Source: a virus
Lineage: Duplodnaviria > Heunggongvirae > Uroviricota > Caudoviricetes
Length of the DNA stretch: 64,000 bases
Direction: 5' to 3' (one strand)
Virus record (IMG/VR): IMGVR_UViG_2690316311_000019
Shown: piece by piece, positions 1 to 45,000 of the stretch
How the letters are laid out: every line of letters begins with the position of its first letter
Position numbering within the stretch: position 1 is the first letter of the stretch
Notes under the pieces: generated by a model
Databases searched by the model: none
Seen by the model: only the letters and a program-made list of their open reading frames with translations
Told to the model about the DNA's origin: nothing
Program-made: the position numbers and the translations under genes

Positions 1-134
1 TTGAGCAGAACTCTGATATTGATAGTGAAGATGTTGCGCAGCGACTGGACGCAGATTTCTTCCTGTTGACCAGTGAAATTTCGTGCCTGGTTGATGCTCT
101 GGTAAATGCCCTTGGCGGAGAGGCTAAGCAGTGA
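1..134 (+). CDS. 3' end of an upstream gene truncated by the window edge (product unknown)
   Basis: Open frame from window start to TGA at 132-134; the stop overlaps the GTG start of the next gene (GTGA). Confidence 0.35.
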
Positions 135-3100
135 AAGAGCTGTGCTATGGATCTGTTTGCAGTGGAATTGAAGCCGCGAGTATTGCCTGGGAACCGTTGG
201 GTATGCGTCCGGCGTGGTTTGCTGAAATCGAGCCTTTTCCATCGGCCGTTCTTGCGCTCCGCTGGCCCCATGTTGCCAACCTTGGCGACATGAAAAAACT
301 TGCCAAAAAAGTCTTGGCTGGGGAAATCGAATCCCCTGACGTGCTCGTCGGGGGAACACCATGTTTTACCGCGGGGCATATGGTTCTTTGTAAAAATGGC
401 TATAAACCAATAGAAAATGTTTGCCCTGGTGATTACGTAGTCAGTCATCTCGGGCGGTTACAACAAGTAAAAAGAGTTGGTTCAAAAATAGCTAATACGG
501 GGTTACTTAATGCCGTTGGGCAGCCTTTAGGTATAAGAACAACCAATGACCATCCCTTCCTGGCTGTTCGGTGGAAAGCCCAAAACACCCGGAAAAATGG
601 CACATATTTTAAGAGAGAGTTGTTGTCTGAACCGGAATGGCGAGCAGCATGTGATATGCCGGGATATCAATGGTGCGCTCTAACTAATTTCAATATTGCA
701 TTTCCAGATATTTGTTCTCGGTTCTTGTCTGAAGAACAGGCTATGTATCTTGCGGGCGCTTATGTTGGCGATGGATATATTAGGAGATGGAGAGGTAAAT
801 CTAAGAAGGCGGTTGTTTTTGGCATAAATTGCCAGAAATTGAGAAAGTTTCATTGCCGCATACCAGAAAACATATTTTCCGTGGCAAGCGAAATCCGAGG
901 GAGCATCAAAGTAACCTTGAATGATACGTGTTATGCCAATTGGCTTAATGAACATTTTGGCGAGTTAAGCCATGCTAAGCGTATCCCTGCATGGGTGATG
1001 TCGCATCCATTGCGTCATGTGTTTTTACAAGGCTATCTTGATACTGATGGGACACCAAGTGGTAAAGCGGGATTTAGAATTAATAGTGTTAGTTCTGCGC
1101 TTGCTTGGGGCGTTGCGGGGTTGTCACAGACTTGTGGTTATGTTTCTTCGGTCAGCTTTATTGAAGTTGAGCCCAAAAAAGTGATCGAGGATCGCGTGGT
1201 AAATCAACGGAATTATTATCAGGTAACAATCTGCCCGCAGAAATTGTCACGTAAATCAAGATTGGCTCATGGAATGCTTTTACGAACAGTCAAAGAGTTT
1301 AAATCGGTAGGCCTAGATACTGTATACAACATAGAAGTCGAAGGTGATCATTCCTATATCCTCAATGGTGCGGTGGTCCATAACTGTCAGGCATTCAGTA
1401 TCGCGGGATTACGTGGTGGGCTTGATGATGAGCGTGGCGCGCTAACTTTAAAGTATGTGGAGTTTGCAAATGCAATTGACGACAAACGGGCTGAGTCATT
1501 TCTCAAACCAGCCGTTATCGTCTGGGAAAATGTCCCAGGAGTCTTGTCATCGGCAGATAACGCCTTCGGATGTTTCCTTGCCGGATTGGCTGGAGAAGAT
1601 GTGCCATTTGAACCAGGTGATCGACCTGAATCAGGAAAAAGCAACGCGTTCTGGCGGTGGGATGGCAAAACCGGTTGCCATGTTCCAAAGTGGCCGCAGT
1701 GTGGTTGTATTTATGGACCGCAGCGAAAAGTGGCCTGGAGAATCCTTGATGCCCAATACTTCGGAGTGGCACAACGACGCCGACGCGTGTTTGTTGTCGC
1801 AAGTGCTCGAACAGATCTCGATCCCGCAACGGTACTTTTTGAGTTCGAAGGCGTGCGCCGGAATATTGCGCCGAGCAGAGGCGAGGGGAAGGAAACTACC
1901 AGATATACTTCAAACATCGCTATCAGAACTTGCGATGATACAAACATAATTGCCATGGCACATGGGCAAGGAGGGGCTGAGATAAAAACCGATAATTCGG
2001 CACCAACTTTGACATGTAACCATGAAGCACCAATTGTATTGCTCGGCGACGGTAGAATGCGCCGTCTTACCCCTGTCGAATGTGAAAGGCTGCAAGGTTT
2101 TCCTGATTGGCATACGTTGATCCCTACGGAAAAGCGTAAAAAAGTTAATTCAGATGAACTGGCATATCTGCACAATCACTATCCAGATTTAAGCGAAGAA
2201 GAGGCCGCAATGCTTGCAGCTGACGGACCGCGTTACAAAGCGATCGGCAATAGTATGGCAATACCAGTAATGCGCTGGATTGGCGATCGGATTACTAAGG
2301 CCGTATGTCGGCAGAAAGAAGGAAGTGAAACAAAAGAGCGAAAAGTTAAACCAGCGGCAGAATTCGAACGGTCCATATTCAAATGGGCTGGTGGAAAATT
2401 TGGTGTTCTGGAACAAATCTTTCGCTATTTGCCAGAAGGGAAGCGCCTGATTGAACCTTTCGTTGGTGGCGGAGCTGTCTTCATGAATGCCGGATACCAG
2501 GAAAATCTGCTAAATGATGTGAATGCTGACCTGATTAACTTTTACAAGACTCTGCAACGCGAGGCGCATTCACTTATCACTCTGGCACATCGTTTCTTCC
2601 AGGACTACAACACACAGGAAGGATACCTGGCAGTACGGAATGCGTTTAACAAACAAGTCTATGATGATTTACATCGCGCAGCGGCGTTTTTGTTCCTGAA
2701 CCGACATTGTTTTAACGGATTGACGCGTTACAACCAGGCCGGTGAGTTCAATGTCGGTTATGGGAAGTATAAAACTCCGTATTTCCCATTACAGGAGATG
2801 GAAGCCTTCCTCGGTGCGGAAGGGCGGTCTGAGTTTGTATGCGGTGATTTTGCAGCGGTGATTGAAGCTGCCGGAGAAGGAGATGTCATCTTTTGCGATC
2901 CGCCGTATGAACCGCTTCCAAATACAGAGGGATTCACGAACTATTCCGGTCATGACTTTAAGTTTGAAGAGCAAAAACGCCTGGTGTCTCTGTTGACGGA
3001 TGCTCATCGTCGAGGTGCAAAGGTTCTCATTACTAACAGTGGCGCGCCAAACATCAGAGAGCTTTATCATGACAGTGGCTTCAGAGTGGAACCTCTTTTT

Positions 3101-3172
3101 GCCAGACGTTCTGTGTCTTGTAAGGGGGACACTCGAGGTGTAGCTCATGACGTTTTGGGTATATTGCTCTAA
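131..3172 (+). CDS. dmt: Bifunctional DNA methyltransferase: N-terminal C5-cytosine MTase domain (interrupted by an intein) fused to C-terminal Dam-like N6-adenine MTase domain
   Basis: C5-MTase motifs (GGTP|[10 protein letters not shown] motif, [23 protein letters not shown]) and Dam motifs ([21 protein letters not shown]); position and architecture match P1 dmt. Confidence 0.88.
362..1384 (+). other. Intein (341 aa) with LAGLIDADG homing endonuclease, inserted between Pro and catalytic Cys of the C5-MTase PC motif
   Basis: Starts CFTAGH (block A), TTNDHPF (block B), two LAGLIDADG motifs ([23 protein letters not shown]), ends VVHN followed by Cys+1; lower GC than flanks. Confidence 0.85.
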
Positions 3173-3179
3173 TAAATTT
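3163..3179 (+). promoter_or_regulatory. C1 repressor operator (ATTGCTCTAATAAATTT) overlapping dmt stop codon
   Basis: Exact match to the P1 C1 operator consensus. Confidence 0.75.
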
Positions 3180-3353
3180 ATTAGTGTAATATCACCTCAA
3201 TGAATCGTGATTTATAGAGCGATTTAGCTGTTAGCCGCGACAGGCGCGGCGGTAAGCATGGCTGGGCCTAGTCCTCCCAGACAAACCACCGAGTTGCCAG
3301 GTTGACCATGCGCCTAAGTGGCAACGCCGAAGTGCGTTACGAGCGTCCAGTTT

Positions 3354-3379
3354 GCCCATCTTCGGGTGGGCGTTTTTTT
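3354..3379 (+). terminator. Rho-independent terminator-like hairpin plus T7 run
   Basis: gcccatc-ttcg-ggtgggc stem-loop followed by ttttttt. Confidence 0.55.
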
Positions 3380-3844
3380 CAGGGTTTTCGTCATGGTTAG
3401 CGACTTTGCGGCGGTTTAGAAACTGACCATTAAAGTAAATGCAAACGATGATCTGATGATGGTAGCGGCCTAAGAAGCCAGATGCCATGGGGTATGAGTC
3501 GTCCCCCGTCAAAAAATCGACCGCAGAGTGTCCCCGTCTGTGTATTAGGGAACGGGGAGGCACAACAGGTAAGGGCGCTGGTGTGATTAACCAGATGAAC
3601 GAGAAGGGGCCATCTGTTGGTCAGCGTCCTTTCCTGTTGCGTTTTCTTTTCAGCGTAACAGCGGTGCTTAACAGCACTTTGGGTACAGTTCCACGAATTT
3701 ACGGGTATATCCCGTCATGCTGAAGGCGCTAATCACGCTGGAAGCCAGGGTTATGCATCCCCTGTTACCGAATTGCAGCCAGGGCGCGGTGCGCCGAAAA
3801 GCATACGGAGGTGGAAGCCCTCGCCGGAGACGTACCCGGCAAGT

Positions 3845-3918
3845 GATGGTGTAGCTCAGCGGTAGAGCAGTTGGCTGTTAACCAACTGGTCGGTAGTTCG
3901 AATCCACCCACCATCGCC
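3845..3918 (+). tRNA. trnA: tRNA-Asn (anticodon GUU)
   Basis: Manual cloverleaf: 7-bp acceptor GATGGTG/CACCATC, D-arm GCTC/GAGC, anticodon loop CTGTTAA, T-loop TTCGAAT, CCA end. Confidence 0.85.
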
Positions 3919-3923
3919 ACTTT

Positions 3924-4010
3924 AGGGGAGTTAGTCCGTAGGGGTAGCGGGGTAGACTGTAAATCTACTGTCATTGCGACTCGGGTGGTTCGACTCCATC
4001 ACTCCCCACC
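3924..4010 (+). tRNA. Type II tRNA-like gene, anticodon GUA (Tyr-like), long variable arm; D-arm atypical
   Basis: Acceptor GGGGAGT/ACTCCCC, anticodon stem GTAGA/TCTAC with loop CTGTAAA, 15-nt variable arm, T-arm GGTGG-TTCGACT-CCATC, CCA end. Confidence 0.55.
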
Positions 4011-4014
4011 ACAT

Positions 4015-4090
4015 TGCCGATTTAGCTCAGTTGGTAGAGCAGTCGCTTTGTAAGCGAATGGTCAGCGGTTCGATCCCGTTAATCGGCACC
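4015..4090 (+). tRNA. trnT: tRNA-Thr (anticodon UGU)
   Basis: Acceptor GCCGATT/AATCGGC, D-arm GCTC/GAGC, anticodon loop TTTGTAA, T-loop TTCGATC, CCA end. Confidence 0.85.
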
Positions 4091-4095
4091 AACAT

Positions 4096-4170
4096 AACAG
4101 GTAAGAGCATTCTCCCTTATGGGGCCTGGCTTAAATGCATCGAGTGCTCTTACCGTTGTGATGAAGTGCA
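4096..4170 (+). repeat. Structured repeat copy A (long hairpin ggtaagagca...tgctcttacc, then cgttgtgatgaagtgc tail)
   Basis: Shares 5' module acaggtaagagcattctcc and 3' tail with copy C; starts right after tRNA-Thr. Confidence 0.55.
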
Positions 4171-4466
4171 GATCTTAGAAGCAACCAGAAGATAAGCATC
4201 TGGCTTCACAACATAAACCGCAGGAACGACCAATAAACGGTAGTCCGTATGGAGAACACCCCGTTGAGGAAGAGGCCTGGCCGGAACCGTAACCGGCGAC
4301 TGGTAATGTGTGTAAATGGAGCGAAATATGTGGGCGTTTAACGGGATACGGGTTGTAACAGCGATTATTAACGGCGAACTTAAGTATTCACGTTTCGAGA
4401 CAAATGAACGTGATGGGAAATGTATTGGTGTGCGGTTAGTAAGAGAATACGCATAACAACTACAAC

Positions 4467-4565
4467 GTTGAGAACACTGGCGTAACGGGGTCATATCCCA
4501 ATCTACGAATAAATGTTGCGTTGCCGCGTGACAACCAGTGTTCTCAACATTGTGGTGAATGCACA
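4467..4565 (+). repeat. Structured repeat copy B (14-bp perfect stem gttgagaacactgg/ccagtgttctcaac enclosing conserved core cgtaacggggtcatatcccaatctacg)
   Basis: Core nearly identical to the core of copy C; 3' tail ttgtggtgaatgc. Confidence 0.55.
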
Positions 4566-4740
4566 GGCTGATGTGCCGCAACTACAGTAGTGCGCGCTTT
4601 GCGGGGCTTGCTACAACCCTGTGTCGGAGTTCAGCACCGACCATCACAGTTTGATTCTCTGGCATGAGCATAACGCTGAAATAAGTCCAGTCTGGTGCGG
4701 TCTGATCACCCGCCGTTAGCTCCACGAAACGGAGCACGTA

Positions 4741-4820
4741 ACAGGTAAGAGCATTCTCCTGTAACGGGTTCATATCCCAATCTACAGGTCCACCAAGAAT
4801 GCTCTTTCCGTTGCGGTGAA
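4741..4820 (+). repeat. Structured repeat copy C (stem aagagcattct/agaatgctctt enclosing core cctgtaacgggttcatatcccaatctacagg)
   Basis: Combines the 5' module of copy A with the core of copy B; 3' tail ccgttgcggtgaatgc. Confidence 0.55.
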
Positions 4821-4964
4821 TGCGGCTAAGCGCACGCGGGGAAATGGTTATATCTGTCCATTATTTCTCCTTGTTTCCACGTCCACGGTGGATAACCAGC
4901 CAAAGGACACCGGGAGGAACCCGGCACCGCAGCTTTTTTATTCGTTAAATAATGGAGTGAGAGG

Positions 4965-5201
4965 ATGCAGAACAATCCGAACAAATGTCGAACGCTATGG
5001 GTGCGGTTATATATTTATGCCGTCCTCTGTTTGATTGTGTCACTGGTTCTGTATGTTTGGCTTTTGCCAAATATGATCTCATCTAACAGCACAATACTTG
5101 TATTGTTGGGAGTCCTTCTCGCGCTCATTTACCCGGCTTTCGCAGTAGTCTTTTTTCGTGAAAAAACCAGGAAATTAATTAATGAAAAAAACGTTGATTA
5201 G
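4965..5201 (+). CDS. upl: Small membrane protein (two predicted TM helices), upstream of plp
   Basis: ORF with GGAG/GAGG RBS; hydrophobic segments; position as in P1 upl. Confidence 0.55.
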   Translation: MQNNPNKCRTLWVRLYIYAVLCLIVSLVLYVWLLPNMISSNSTILVLLGVLLALIYPAFAVVFFREKTRKLINEKNVD

Positions 5202-6009
5202 TGCAGCGATTATTTTGGGTTCTTTATGTCTGACCGGATGCGATCGGGTAGAGCCAGGTAACGTAGGGATCAAAGTAAATAAGCTGGGGGATGATAAAGG
5301 TATCGGTGAAGTAGTTGGCGTTGGTCGCTACTGGACAGGCTTGAATACTGAAGTTTATATCTTCCCGACCTTTAAGCAAATGAAGACATACGATGAGCCG
5401 TTCAGCTTCCAGATGAGCGACGGAACAACCATTGGTTACCACATCGGCGTAGCCTACAAGGTTGATCCAGCAAAAGTCACAACGGTATTTCAGACCTATC
5501 GCAAAGGTGTAGATGATATTACTGATACCGATCTACGCCAGAAGGTTGCAGATGCTCTGAACCGATTAGCCAGCAAAATGACCACCGACAAATTTATCGA
5601 CGGTGGCAAATCTGAATTGCTTGATGCAGCCCTTAAAGACATTCAGGAAGAAATGACGCCAATCGGCATTCAGGTGATGAGCCTCTCTTATGTAGGTAAG
5701 CCAGAATACCCGCCAACAGTTATTGACAGTATTAACGCCAAAGTCACGGCAAACCAAAAAACCCTGCAACGCGAGCAAGAGGTCAAACAACGTGAAGCAG
5801 AGGCCAACATGCTGCGCGCGGAAGCTGCCGGACAGGCTGATGCTATTCGCACAAAAGCCCAGGCCGAAGCTGATGCCATTCGTTTACGTGGTGAAGCTCT
5901 GCGCCAGAACCCCGGTGTTATGGACTTGGAAGCGATCAACAAATGGAACGGTACATTACCGCAGTATATGACCAGTAATACCGCTGTTCCGTTTGTTCCG
6001 GTGAAATAA
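5182..6009 (+). CDS. plp: Lipoprotein with SPFH/band-7-like domain
   Basis: Signal peptide with lipobox LTGC, coiled-coil C-terminus; P1 plp position. Confidence 0.75.
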   Translation: MKKTLISAAIILGSLCLTGCDRVEPGNVGIKVNKLGDDKGIGEVVGVGRYWTGLNTEVYIFPTFKQMKTYDEPFSFQMSDGTTIGYHIGVAYKVDPAKVTTVFQTYRKGVDDITDTDLRQKVADALNRLASKMTTDKFIDGGKSELLDAALKDIQEEMTPIGIQVMSLSYVGKPEYPPTVIDSINAKVTANQKTLQREQEVKQREAEANMLRAEAAGQADAIRTKAQAEADAIRLRGEALRQNPGVMDLEAINKWNGTLPQYMTSNTAVPFVPVK

Positions 6010-6036: not shown

Positions 6037-6112
6037 GGCCCTTTAGCTCAGTGGTTAGAGCTGGCGACTCATAATCGCACGGTCACCGGTTCAAGTCCGG
6101 TAGGGGCCACCA
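6037..6112 (+). tRNA. trnI: tRNA with anticodon CAU, strongly resembling E. coli ileX (tRNA-Ile2, lysidine)
   Basis: Acceptor GGCCCTT/AGGGGCC, anticodon loop CTCATAA, T-loop TTCAAGT, CCA end; near-identity to ileX by recall. Confidence 0.85.
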
Positions 6113-33602: not shown

Positions 33603-33922
33603 GTGTTTTTTAGCTACCGATGTTACATTGAACCTGACCTCTTGCGCCTTGAGGCATTTTCGGTTTATGCTTATCAGGCACCTCATTAAAACGGGTGCCG
33701 GGATTGGCCTCCCGCTTAAGTCTAAGGCGATACAGACGCCGCTCGCGTCTTTTTTTGTATCGGCGTACACGCACACCTCTACAATGGTGGGCTGTATGGG
33801 GCTACCTTCGGGTAGGCTGGTTACCTTGGACGCCAGTAAGGCCAACTCCGTACAGTCCACCGCCAGCAAGATTGGTCTCTTCTGCGGTGGTTACATACCA
33901 ACGTCTAAGGAGGCTGCCAATA

Positions 33923-42081: not shown

Positions 42082-45000
42082 TTATGCGTATTGTTGGATG
42101 ACGGCCAGAACGTCCGCCACGTTGTGTTTTGTCTCGATAATCCACCAGTTACCCGGGAAATCGCTGTTCTTCGCCTTCGCTGGCAGCCAGCGAGCGCCGA
42201 ATTTTTCCTTGATTGCGTCTTTAGCACGGAAAAGAACGCCTTTCATGCCGGACGCCTCCTGAAGCCCAAATACCTCTCCAGCGGCGAATTTTGGTGCGTA
42301 CATCATCTTCAGGTCGGCAGTGGATACGCGATAATTCAGACCAAGAGACTGAGCTATGCTGGTGGCATCACCCTGTATTGATGATAACTCTTCTTGTTTC
42401 TCGTTTCTGGCGGCAATTTCTTCCTCCGTGATGTTGCCAAGGGCCAGGTTTATCCGATCAGCGTCGGCCTGTTTCTCTTCATCGGTGCGCCCGGCAAGAA
42501 CCGTGTTAATTCTCTGCAATATCTCCACATGATTCTTGCGCATGCTGAGCAAGTCCGGCGTAACCTCGTTAAGATCCACCAGCCCAAGGATGGCAAGGTC
42601 GGAAAACATTGATACCAGGTTGTAGGTCATGCGATAGCTGAGTTGACCATAGGCTGATGGCAACTTCATCGCATCCATTTTATAGGCATCCATAAATTTA
42701 GAGCCGTCGTTTACGACATCCGCAATTGCCGGTGTGATTTTTCCTGTGGTGGCGGCCTCCCTGATTGCTGTTACCCACGATTGAGTCAGCGCGGCGACTG
42801 CATGATTCAGATTGGCTTTCCGTTCTGCTGCAATGCGCGCGCTTGCTGCGTCCATTGCCTGCTTGATCTCGTCTTTATTGCTGTAAATGCCAATGGTGCC
42901 AAACTGTGCTGTGGTGATCTCATAATCTGACGCCCGGAACTCATTGGTACCGAAAATAGCATTGGTGACCTCAAGTTCAGAATCCCCGTTACGAGTAGCC
43001 CCCTGGTTTGTTTTTTCCGGCATTCTGGCGATCGCATCCGCTATTTTCTCCTGAATTGCTTCAGGGGATAGCGTATCTCCGTATGACGCGATTACATCGC
43101 CATAATTGGAGCCAAACAGTTCAACCAGGAATGTTTCTGCCGAACGGATCTGGCGGTTATTCCCTTCCGACATCATACCAAGCACCCATTTTGCAATTGA
43201 CGACTTCAGCGCGCCGTCACGGCGATCCGGGTAAACCGCATGCTTCAGTGGGTACGTATAGGTACCAACAAAATCAATGCTATAGCCTGACTCTGTAGTC
43301 TGAACGCCGTATGAGTCAGTGATTTTGATCATGCCGCGCTGCTGGAAACGGTAGAAATCGTCACAGGAAATGATGTCGTTAATCCCGGCGATGGAGACGC
43401 CACCACTGATTTTCTGCATAACAGCATCTTCATCGGGAGTTACATCAACCTGTTTATCCAGCGTCTTCACATCCCAGTTACCCGATTTGGTACCTTTGAA
43501 GGTAAAGATGATCTCCACGTCTGCGCGCTGGCTGTCGAAGTCCAGCGACTTAATGCGAACGATATCACCGGCACAATCATAGTATTGGCCTACACGCCAT
43601 GAGCGATCGCCGATAACAAGGAACTCATTCGCATGGTTAACCAGATCAGGATCAACATCCAGAATGCCTTTATTTATTGCATCCTCCACCAGCGGGCGCA
43701 GGCGTTTGATATCCGTCGCGGCCTTCTGAGTACGGTTCAATAATTTCTCATAGCGGGAGATGGCCTGAGAGATATTAGCCTTGCGCTGAATGGCGCTTTT
43801 CAACGACGCGCGATACTGTGCTAACAACATACGGTCTGTGTGATGGACGCTACCCCAGCGGGCTTTCCAGTCTGCGTTATCAGCTGCTTTGGCCATTACC
43901 GCCTGTTTGAATTTGGCGACGTCGGCGGTGGTCTTTTCAAGTTCCGCTTTGCTTCGCTCCAATTCAGCGGTAAGTACCTCCACATCCTCACCAGCTGCGT
44001 GCTGCGCCTTGATGTAGTTCTGAAGGTCGATAGTAGCCTGTTCTTTCTGGCGAGCGCGTTTCGCAGCTTTCGCCTTATCCATTTGAACCTGCATCATTGC
44101 CAGACGTTCGCCGTCATCCTTCGCGGTATACATCTGCATTTCGATCATGTCATTGGCGTCGGCGTTCTCCATTTCTGACTTATCTGAACGGAGGATATCG
44201 GAGATCCAGCCTGCTTTACGCTTCAGCGTCTTCAGTCGGTATTCATCGAAAGACCCCTTGCCGCAGTAGTAGTGAACGCGAACGCTTGCACGGTTGGAGC
44301 CAACTCGTGCACCGCGACCGTTACGTTGTGCGATGCTGGCTGGAGTCCACGGCAACGTCAGGTGGTGGATATCCGTCGTTCCTCGATGCAGGTTGATACC
44401 CACCTCTGCCTTTTTGTTGCAGATGATGATCGGAGTCCGGCCCTCCTGGAAGTCGGCTGCAATCTTTTCCAGACCGCCCAACGACATTTCATTTTGCTGC
44501 GCGATATAGGCGTCATACCGAGCCATTTGCTCGTTGTATTTCGCTATCTGCGCATCTGTTGGTTCATCCGGTAGCTCTTTCGGCGGTTTAACAGCTTTCA
44601 GTTTCTGACCGGTTTTACCTGCCTCGGCAACCGTCTGAGCATTCAGGATCCCCACCTTTGAAGGTTCAAGGTTAAGAGCATTGCAGATAATGCGCTTGAG
44701 CTTCTGGTGCTGCGTTTTTTCATCGGTGAAGATGATTTGCTTACCTTCCGGGAAAAACTCCTTCAGCGTGGCAATCAGCTTCGCGTATTTGGGCGTAACG
44801 GGGTGAGTTACGGTCTGTTCGTCAATGCCAAACCTGGCCAGGCGCTTATTCACTTCCTGCTCGAACGCTTCCGGAACCTGCAACTGAATAAACTCGCCCT
44901 TATCTATCAGGGAGTATTGCGATTGCTGCGTGATTGAATCATCACTGTCGTCGTCTTCGCTGGTGGCTTGTTTAGGCAAACTGTCCGCCAGCTGCTGCAC

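Follow-up and report, generated by a model that had tools for sequence, protein, structure and literature searches.

Hairpins cleaved by ribonuclease III (RNase III) free transfer RNAs (tRNAs) and ribosomal RNAs (rRNAs) from polycistronic transcripts, with metY-nusA-infB, the rrn operon and the R1-R5 sites of the T7 early transcript as familiar cases. In these, a long imperfect duplex lies beside a tRNA or another structured RNA, and RNase III sites near tRNAs and rRNAs carry internal mismatches or bulges near the presumed cut. Both properties recur in a set of hairpins that we analysed in a 64,000-nucleotide (nt) stretch of viral DNA, IMG/VR record IMGVR_UViG_2690316311_000019 (hereafter the window), from a P1-like phage. 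However, the known sites do not appear to form a repeated sequence family with an exchangeable top, as these hairpins do. We find the hairpins to belong to a real, conserved, strand-specific family of RNA structures, and we give about an even chance to their being cis-acting, RNase III-type punctuation signals in a long untranslated phage transcript.

Other described RNAs share parts of this arrangement. T4 species 1 and 2 are small stable RNAs from a phage tRNA cluster, and they resemble the present case as structured RNAs other than tRNAs that share a transcript with phage tRNAs and depend on the tRNA-processing enzymes of the host for maturation; nevertheless, they have no sequence relationship to the hairpins and are not a hairpin-plus-domain repeat. 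The Y RNA-like YrlA (RF02553), with its tRNA-like module on a long stem, recalls one P1 hairpin of the family and several tops of related hairpins that carry D- and T-arm-like hairpins. Most of the tops are not tRNA-like, however, and we rejected this identity, with no YrlA model match on the elements (the only weak match spans true tRNAs) and no Ro/Rsr context. For phage lambda, RNase III sites of the Q-dependent late transcript are named in the title of Daniels, Subbarao, Blattner & Lozeron (1988, Virology 167:568, cited in PMC7547250). A member of our family lies in the same transcript and may coincide with a site named in that title. In neither Rfam 15 nor the literature searched did we find what characterises our family: a base that stays constant under a hypervariable top, several copies in P1, and a link to tRNA-like domains. 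Lastly, STnc100 and PasD are Hfq-dependent base-pairing small RNAs of prophages (Zhu, Shabalina & Storz, bioRxiv 2026, 10.64898/2026.05.13.724894) that occupy the niche between Q and holin genes in which the lambdoid hairpins also lie. They have been described as base-pairing small RNAs and not as tRNA-like domains, and the STnc100 model (RF02076) does not include the hairpins.

A constant base with an exchangeable top

An earlier note on this DNA, made from its letters alone, had reported three copies of a hairpin repeat downstream of a tRNA cluster. It overlooked a fourth, upstream of the tRNAs, and the bounds of its three copies had to be redrawn to include the basal helix. The copies are as follows:

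3561-3641, + strand: hairpin copy 0, base CACAAC-A-GGUAAGGGCGCUGG / CAGCGUCCUUUCC-U-GUUGCG, -40.4 kcal/mol, z-score -5.2
4093-4160, + strand: hairpin copy A, scaffold with apical type CUCCCUUAUGGGGCCUGGCUUAAAUGCAUCG
4459-4556, + strand: hairpin copy B, diverged scaffold CUACAAC-G-UUGAGAACACUGG / CCAGUGUUCUCAAC-A-UUGUGG with a 25-nt core shared with copy C, z-score -6.0
4737-4815, + strand: hairpin copy C, canonical scaffold with the shared 25-nt core

All four fold as long hairpins (z-scores -4.2 to -6.0, with none of 200 shuffles folding as well), as had been claimed for three, and their stems of 19-25 base pairs (bp) span about two helical turns. The base of the stem is nearly invariant, CRYAAC-A-GGUAAG / CUUWCC-GUUGYG, and the apical domain above it is swappable. 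Within this base, the lowest 6-7 bp, which we call the basal helix, are made with the first nucleotides of the following module, and the box above them, GGUAAG/CUUWCC, is nearly invariant and has a bulged A and often a U-U mismatch. A scan of the window for this architecture (AAC, an optional bulge, at least 12 of 14 stem pairs, then GTT or ATT) returned exactly four + strand elements plus one chance match, against zero or one in shuffled windows.

The internal similarities described earlier hold up as well. Copies A and C share a 5' module (4092-4124 and 4736-4768, 85% identity over 33 nt), and copies B and C share the core GTAACGGGKTCATATCCCAATCTAC (4482-4506 and 4761-4785), which matches at 24 of 25 positions. 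The related tails are present too, except that the tail of copy B begins cATTG rather than cGTTG. We agree that the repeats are not an array of clustered regularly interspaced short palindromic repeats (CRISPR), being imperfect hairpins of 70-100 nt at irregular spacings of 532, 368 and 276 nt. Intrinsic terminators are likewise ruled out, no U-tract following any of the four hairpins, and a likeness of CGUAACA(A)GGUAA to the 3' end of Escherichia coli 16S rRNA, seen by eye, was set aside as coincidence since the pairing register differs. Rfam models at gathering scores match nothing inside 4096-4820, the only matches in the window being tRNAs, C4 and isrK; at relaxed thresholds, the hairpins match only microRNA-precursor models, which are generic long hairpins.

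This scaffold was counted in at least 177 viral contigs, under at least 57 apical sequences unrelated to one another, and it is present in prophages across Enterobacterales. As CRCAACAGGTAAGAGCATT ... AGTGCTCTTWCCGTTGTGGTGAAT, it frames differing interiors in Klebsiella phage MK54, Salmonella phage Sasha and a Klebsiella lambdoid phage, and pieces of the region match many unrelated temperate phages. Searching IMG/VR contigs with the pattern AACAGGTWAG-N(35-65)-CTYWYCGTTGYGRTGAA gave at least 120 contigs, and a spacer of 66-96 nt gave 57 further ones, the interiors sorting into at least 35 plus 22 unrelated types; a spacer of 4-34 nt gave no contig. In a scan of one genome per species, the pattern was present in 18 species, which span Enterobacteriaceae, Erwiniaceae and Yersiniaceae, plus two probable contaminant contigs. 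At most non-P1 loci, an open reading frame (ORF) on the same strand precedes the element by 60-330 nt, and two others follow about 350 nt downstream. In lambdoid prophages, the flanking ORFs encode Q antiterminators of different families upstream and holins of different families downstream, and the element is always oriented like its flanking tRNAs and Q/holin genes.

Lambda itself carries a member at about 44,778-44,871, between Q and S and directly after the 6S/tR' terminator (CACAAC at 44,787, GUUGUG at 44,857). Its stem runs to about 28 bp, and no other duplex in the late leader is as long. RNase III sites of the late transcript are not among the features annotated in the lambda GenBank records. 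The tRNA clusters of rV5-like virulent phages contain the domain downstream of the lambda hairpin (44,857-44,944) as well, at 83% identity, and its closing helix shows compensatory changes between the two (GUUGUGCUG/CAGCACAAC versus GUUGACCUUG/CAUGGUCAAC). The element is unannotated in the P1, lambda and MK54 annotations that we examined, the family is absent from Rfam 15, and the scaffold sequence turned up nowhere in the literature searched. Lambda and P1 are among the best-studied genomes, and yet a conserved element went without an Rfam entry, with the doubtful ORFs plp and upl overlying the P1 copies. In E. coli K-12, the prophages DLP12 and Qin have no full hairpin copy; a tail-like remnant without a hairpin (CAUUGUGGUGAAGUGCAG) lies at about 1,641,171, in Qin between cspB and essQ.

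Covariation was assessed on 57 distinct arm pairs with the interiors removed, and only the pairs outside the ten innermost base positions, which the search pattern fixes, are informative. Pairing is seen in 91.8% of cells, and 7 of the 20 scaffold pairs are changed on both sides, in 50 cells, which none of 500 shuffles reaches; sliding the register lowers pairing from 92% to 34-64%. After GGUAAG, for instance, the arms read AGCA/UGCU, GGAG/UUCC, AUUA/UAAU, CACC/GGUG, CUGC/GCAG or CCAA/UUGG. A U-G wobble is kept in 40 of the 57 sequences, and several pairs are G-C in some of them and G-U in others. Since a conserved U-G or G-U pair turns into an A-C mismatch when the opposite strand is read, the structure is that of an RNA of the + strand.

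This strand asymmetry bears directly on whether the elements instead act as DNA, as recombination or linker sites (attC-like or at module boundaries) that aid cassette exchange. The conserved inverted ends around variable centres would suit such sites, as would the AAC...GTT base, which recalls the attC cores RYYYAAC/GTTRRRY, the independent assortment of apical types and downstream domains, and the mosaic matches to many unrelated phages. However, the conserved wobbles are strand-specific, the elements always follow the orientation of the surrounding transcription unit, no associated recombinase was noticed, and exchange is expected anyway through homologous recombination in the 20-nt conserved arms. 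We consider a role as DNA sites highly improbable. As integron attC sites proper, we rejected them: the cores CRYAAC/GTTGYG have one mismatch to each consensus, the G-U pairs indicate RNA, and no integron integrase gene was noticed in the nearby ORF listings and annotations examined, no dedicated search having been run.

Coupling of the hairpins to downstream domains

The tails, which had been described as the ends of the repeats, are not free ends but the 5' strand of the next domain. The tail GUUGYGRUG pairs with CRYCRCAAY 40-220 nt downstream, and within the window the distance is 40-115 nt. A strict partner, with all 9 positions paired and no more than one pair that is not Watson-Crick, was present in 81 of 141 cases, compared with 2 of 141 for shuffled sequence. 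Of the 81 strict helices, 37 run straight into a CCA, chiefly in lambdoid contexts; the domains after copies A, B and C have no such CCA. In the commonest class of domain, a 3-nt linker leads from the closing helix to a D-like hairpin (GCGC-AGGCUGAU-GCGC); beyond a variable stretch, a T-like hairpin (GCCGG-AGAUCAGCA-CCGGY) sits directly against the 3' strand of the closing helix. The D-like and T-like loops are complementary, and across 55 distinct sequences 12 of the 24 pairs are changed on both sides, a result reached by none of 500 shuffles. Three of the covarying pairs, none of them selected for, belong to the loop-loop helix (GCUGAU:AUCAGC, GUCGA:UCGAC, ACUGAU:AUCAGU). A second class has a true T-loop (GGUUCGAUUCC) and a weak match to the tRNA-like end of transfer-messenger RNA (tmRNA). 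The window contains the following downstream features:

4155-4212, + strand: short tail-closed domain, GUUGUGAUGAAG pairing with CUUCACAAC, containing CCAGA-AGAUAAGCA-UCUGG
4549-4650, + strand: class I tRNA-like domain with the acceptor-like helix AUUGUGGUG/CAUCACAGU
4661-4735, + strand: conserved spacer module ending in the hairpin GCUCCACGAAACGGAGC
4810-4939, + strand: STnc100-like tRNA-like domain (domain 4810-4933), closed by GUUGCGGUG/CACCGCAGC

The short domain has homologues in Sasha-like and P22-like phages that end in N-CCA, and its closing helix covaries (GUUGUGGUG/CACCACAAC; GAUGCGAUG/CAUCGCAUC). In the P22-like phage SPN9CC (2500-2560), a short tRNA-like domain (GAUGCGAUG ... CAUCGCAUC-A-CCA) lies a few nt upstream of the Shine-Dalgarno sequence of an N-like antiterminator, which in lambda is where the RNase III site of the N leader lies. 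The class I domain has its D-like hairpin at 4561-4576 and its T-like hairpin at 4623-4641, with the complementary loops GCUGA/UCAGC. Lambdoid phages of Klebsiella and Cronobacter also have the spacer module, immediately before hairpins. The domain after copy C has the T-like hairpin CCGG-GAGGAAC-CCGG (4910-4924) followed by a run of six U, and it aligns with STnc100 including the outer helix formed by the tail. The match covers 4812-4931 (38.0 bits, E-value 3e-6, model positions 31-147 of 206) and falls short of the gathering score of 47; the P1 counterpart scores 33.4 bits.

A tmRNA-like module precedes copy 0, at about 3385-3560, and includes an ORF of 10 codons (ANDDLMMVAA*, 3441-3473). 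We collected 158 copies of it from P1-like, MK54-like and lambdoid loci, with 19 tag variants that are all 10 codons long, begin AN(D/E) and nearly all end in AA or VA, with one in AP. The tag stop codon sits inside a covarying hairpin like helix 5; next come another hairpin and an H-type pseudoknot, whose four pairs all covary. Neither ARAGORN, which gives only noise at low thresholds, nor Rfam calls the module, and a search for a tRNA-like acceptor partner found none. A widespread tmRNA-like tag module thus escapes the standard tmRNA finders.

With tRNA-like domains following the hairpins, the processing enzyme could be RNase P rather than RNase III, the hairpin serving as a structured 5' leader or as a folding competitor that times cleavage. 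The 9-bp tail-closed helix and its excess over shuffled sequence argue for this, as do the covarying D-like and T-like hairpins and loop-loop pairs, the CCA right after the helix in the 37 strict cases, and the 12-13 bp coaxial stack that the T-stem would form with the acceptor-like helix. Minimum free energy (MFE) predictions also place GUUGYG either in the base of the hairpin or in the downstream acceptor-like helix, copy by copy, and a sequential refolding after cleavage is plausible on these models. On the other hand, hairpins also stand before the tmRNA-like module, whose acceptor partner was sought and not found, the P1-type domains past copies A, B and C do not carry CCA, and neither ARAGORN nor the Rfam tRNA model (RF00005) calls the tRNA-like domains, in the window or at other loci. 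We regard RNase P as the enzyme acting at the hairpins as an unlikely alternative to RNase III. As to the earlier suggestion that the repeats are tRNA-derived, it fits the tails, with the tRNA-like domains that follow them, and some of the tops, such as that of copy A in P1, but not most apical types.

Proposed processing signals and the variable top

Central to the likely function is that the basal helix always follows the identity of the next module. The tail GUUGYG goes with a 5' CRYAAC (190 distinct sequences), the tail GAUAGUUUUCG is paired with CAACUAUC (6 cases, all 6/6 paired), and the tail AGUUUUCG goes with GAAA(U)CU (8 cases). In terms of modules, CRYAAC/GUUGYG is found before tRNA-like domains, and CAACUAUC/GAUAGUU and GAAAUCU/AGUUUUC before the tmRNA-like module. 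Where the tmRNA-like module has a promoter of its own (TTGACA-17-TAGATT), its expected start lies no more than about 1 nt from the same GAUAGUUUUCG that in the embedded copies comes after CUUUCC. As the basal helix uses the start of the next module and this matches the promoter-given start, the hairpin seems to mark the place where a 5' end is wanted. On the upstream side, the basal helix of copy A directly abuts the CCA end of tRNA-Thr (4091), and at other P1-like loci the gap between tRNA and hairpin is at most 4 nt. Host RNase III is pointed to by a duplex of at least two turns with a conserved bulge and mismatch near the junction, a presumed location inside long transcripts, and the RNase III sites that the 1988 title names for the lambda late transcript. 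Of the roles listed in the earlier note, processing signals fit best, although the decoy, small-RNA and protein-binding roles may apply to the variable tops, and we infer the nuclease, the cut sites and the order of events from the features above.

Under this proposal, host RNase III would cut near the junction of the GGUAAG/CUUWCC box and the basal helix. The next module would thereby gain a free 5' end, the preceding tRNA or module would keep only a short 3' trailer, and the top of the hairpin would be released. The freed GUUGYGRUGAA tail could then pair with the downstream CRYCRCAAC to form the acceptor-like helix of the tRNA-like domain, on which RNase P and 3' trimming may also act. If correct, the proposal would account for the cutting of long untranslated phage leaders into tRNAs and small RNAs. 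Arrays of non-coding RNA in phages, among them the STnc100/PasD class at the 'moron' site of pathogenic E. coli prophages, could then be found by a sequence signature, and it would become a testable question why a processing hairpin must have a top, and one that is hypervariable.

Several observations weigh against this proposal. A plain RNase III site needs no near-invariant 20-nt base across Enterobacterales phages, nor does it require an apical domain, and yet every top has about 20 variable nt or more, and there are at least 57 types of it. An obligatory and hypervariable top is not explained by a punctuation role. RNase P alone could suffice to mature the tRNA-like domains, between the presumed promoter and the array stands an intrinsic terminator (3353-3372), and the lambda RNase III sites of the 1988 title may lie outside the lambda hairpin. 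Finally, the 25-nt core of copies B and C is far better conserved (96% identity) than their arms (52-64%), which hints at a sequence-specific role of the top, although recent cassette exchange could also explain it.

In a rival reading, the hairpins are scaffolds that show variable tops, the excised tops acting in trans as small RNAs, tRNA mimics or decoys, and the constant base serving only for processing and stability. The obligatory apical domain speaks for this (no contig with a 4-34 nt interior), as does the fact that each of the at least 57 discrete apical types is kept across unrelated phages. Copy A, whose apical type also occurs in Klebsiella phage MK54 and lambdoid prophages, has in P1 a top with both D- and T-arm-like hairpins, and in several other apical types a T-arm lies against the 3' arm. 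The well-conserved B/C core (an example of an apical core being GTAACGGGTTCATATCCCAATCTAC) folds into a GGG/CCC stem with a 7-nt UUCAUAU loop resembling an anticodon loop. However, the same top on different scaffolds can come from recombination in the conserved arms, the apical types have no common motif that would indicate one host factor, and the core, which the earlier note had proposed to look for in other phages, was found in P1-like contigs and nowhere outside them. We also tried the core as a mimic of the initiator-tRNA anticodon stem; the GGG/CCC stem and CAU loop are suggestive, yet the idea is unsupported and the core is a P1-like feature only.

On balance, tops acting in trans seem doubtful to us, and unlikely in the more specific form of a constant 'display and excision' scaffold for interchangeable small-RNA cassettes of temperate Enterobacterales phages, released by RNase III as trans-acting RNAs or decoys. 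Nevertheless, such a role can coexist with that of a processing signal, and tops with functions of their own may be the main rival of the punctuation role or its complement. Should the tops act in this way, then the hairpins, the tRNA-like domains and the tmRNA-like tag module would together make up a modular phage RNA toolkit, matured wholly by host tRNA- and rRNA-processing enzymes and exchanged by recombination in the conserved arms.

The presumed transcript and its neighbourhood

Over positions 3150-5000, the window shares 99.3% identity with phage vB_EcoM-Ro157c2YLVW and 95% with P1. Homology with the P1 record places the repeats in the untranslated leader of the C1-controlled ban operon, which runs in the order dmt, Pban promoters with a bivalent C1 operator, 'dicF-like region', tRNA genes and plp/upl stretch. 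Two of these features were placed in the window:

3148-3195, + strand: Pban promoters and bivalent C1 operator (Op72), by homology with the P1 annotation, with an inverted repeat at 3161-3192
3845-4091, + strand: tRNA-Asn, tRNA-Tyr and tRNA-Thr cluster, called by ARAGORN and Rfam

The transcript carrying the array presumably starts at Pban/Op72, and about 1.8 kb of untranslated RNA separates Pban from the first ORF past the array, at 4965. A search of 3100-5250 found no promoter-like site on either strand. The DicF-like region of the P1 annotation corresponds to 3287-3380, with the strong intrinsic terminator at its end followed by a run of seven U.

So long an untranslated RNA raises the possibility that the array is a shield against premature termination, passive where structure blocks Rho loading or active through a boxA-like signal (UGCUCUUU) in the 3' arm, which in the form GUGCUCUUUCC resembles the rrn/nut boxA. 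However, the boxA-like letters are sequestered in the stem and are lost in the covarying variants GGGAG/UUUCC, AUUA/UAAU, CACC/GGUG and CCAAAU/AUUUGG, and on the latter ground we rejected boxA antitermination. Lambda late transcription is already terminator-resistant via Q, and a shield leaves it unexplained that the basal helix tracks the next module. We consider a shielding role very unlikely.

The remaining alternative is that the minus strand is coding and the repeats are incidental. The P1 record annotates plp and upl here, and open frames persist in the window, at 4150-4581 and 4582-4773, as they do in 34 distinct P1-like segments. Between P1-like sequences so alike, though, a conserved upl frame carries no information; plp in P1 overlaps tRNA-Thr, the plp-like product is altered in the window by an insertion of about 170 nt, neither ORF has a Pfam match, and the promoter search above found nothing on the minus strand. 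Modules in unrelated phages vary in lengths that are not multiples of three, with compensatory rather than codon-like substitutions. Coding on the minus strand is hardly credible as an explanation of the repeats, and the earlier judgement that they lie in no convincing ORF can stand.

Some further features of the region deserve mention. The structured RNAs arrayed along the presumed transcript are a DicF-like RNA, the tmRNA-like module, three tRNAs, the tRNA-like domains and an STnc100-like RNA. The tRNA block of the window is about 76% identical to tRNA clusters of N4-like phages, and its tRNA-Tyr (3925-4011), between tRNA-Asn and tRNA-Thr, is not in P1. Another tRNA, with a CAU anticodon, was called at 6037 by ARAGORN and Rfam. 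The insertion of about 170 nt relative to P1 lies at about 4292-4460 and contains a 42-codon ORF (4328-4456, MWAFNGIRVVTAIINGELKYSRFETNERDGKCIGVRLVREYA) with a Shine-Dalgarno sequence ahead of it and no Pfam match. The place of tciA-tciB-tciC in P1 is taken by an ORF for a 78-aa small membrane protein and one for a 275-aa SPFH/Band-7 lipoprotein (4965-6009). Further away, isrK-like and C4 antisense RNAs of the P1 immunity region (33678-33867) score above the Rfam gathering thresholds. Upstream of the leader, the dmt ORF (131-3172) encodes 1013 aa, compared with about 754 aa for P1 Dmt (66412-68676), and contains an intein with Hint and LAGLIDADG homing-endonuclease domains at about 359-1384, inserted at the GGTPC|QAFS catalytic motif in the C5-methyltransferase half of Dmt.

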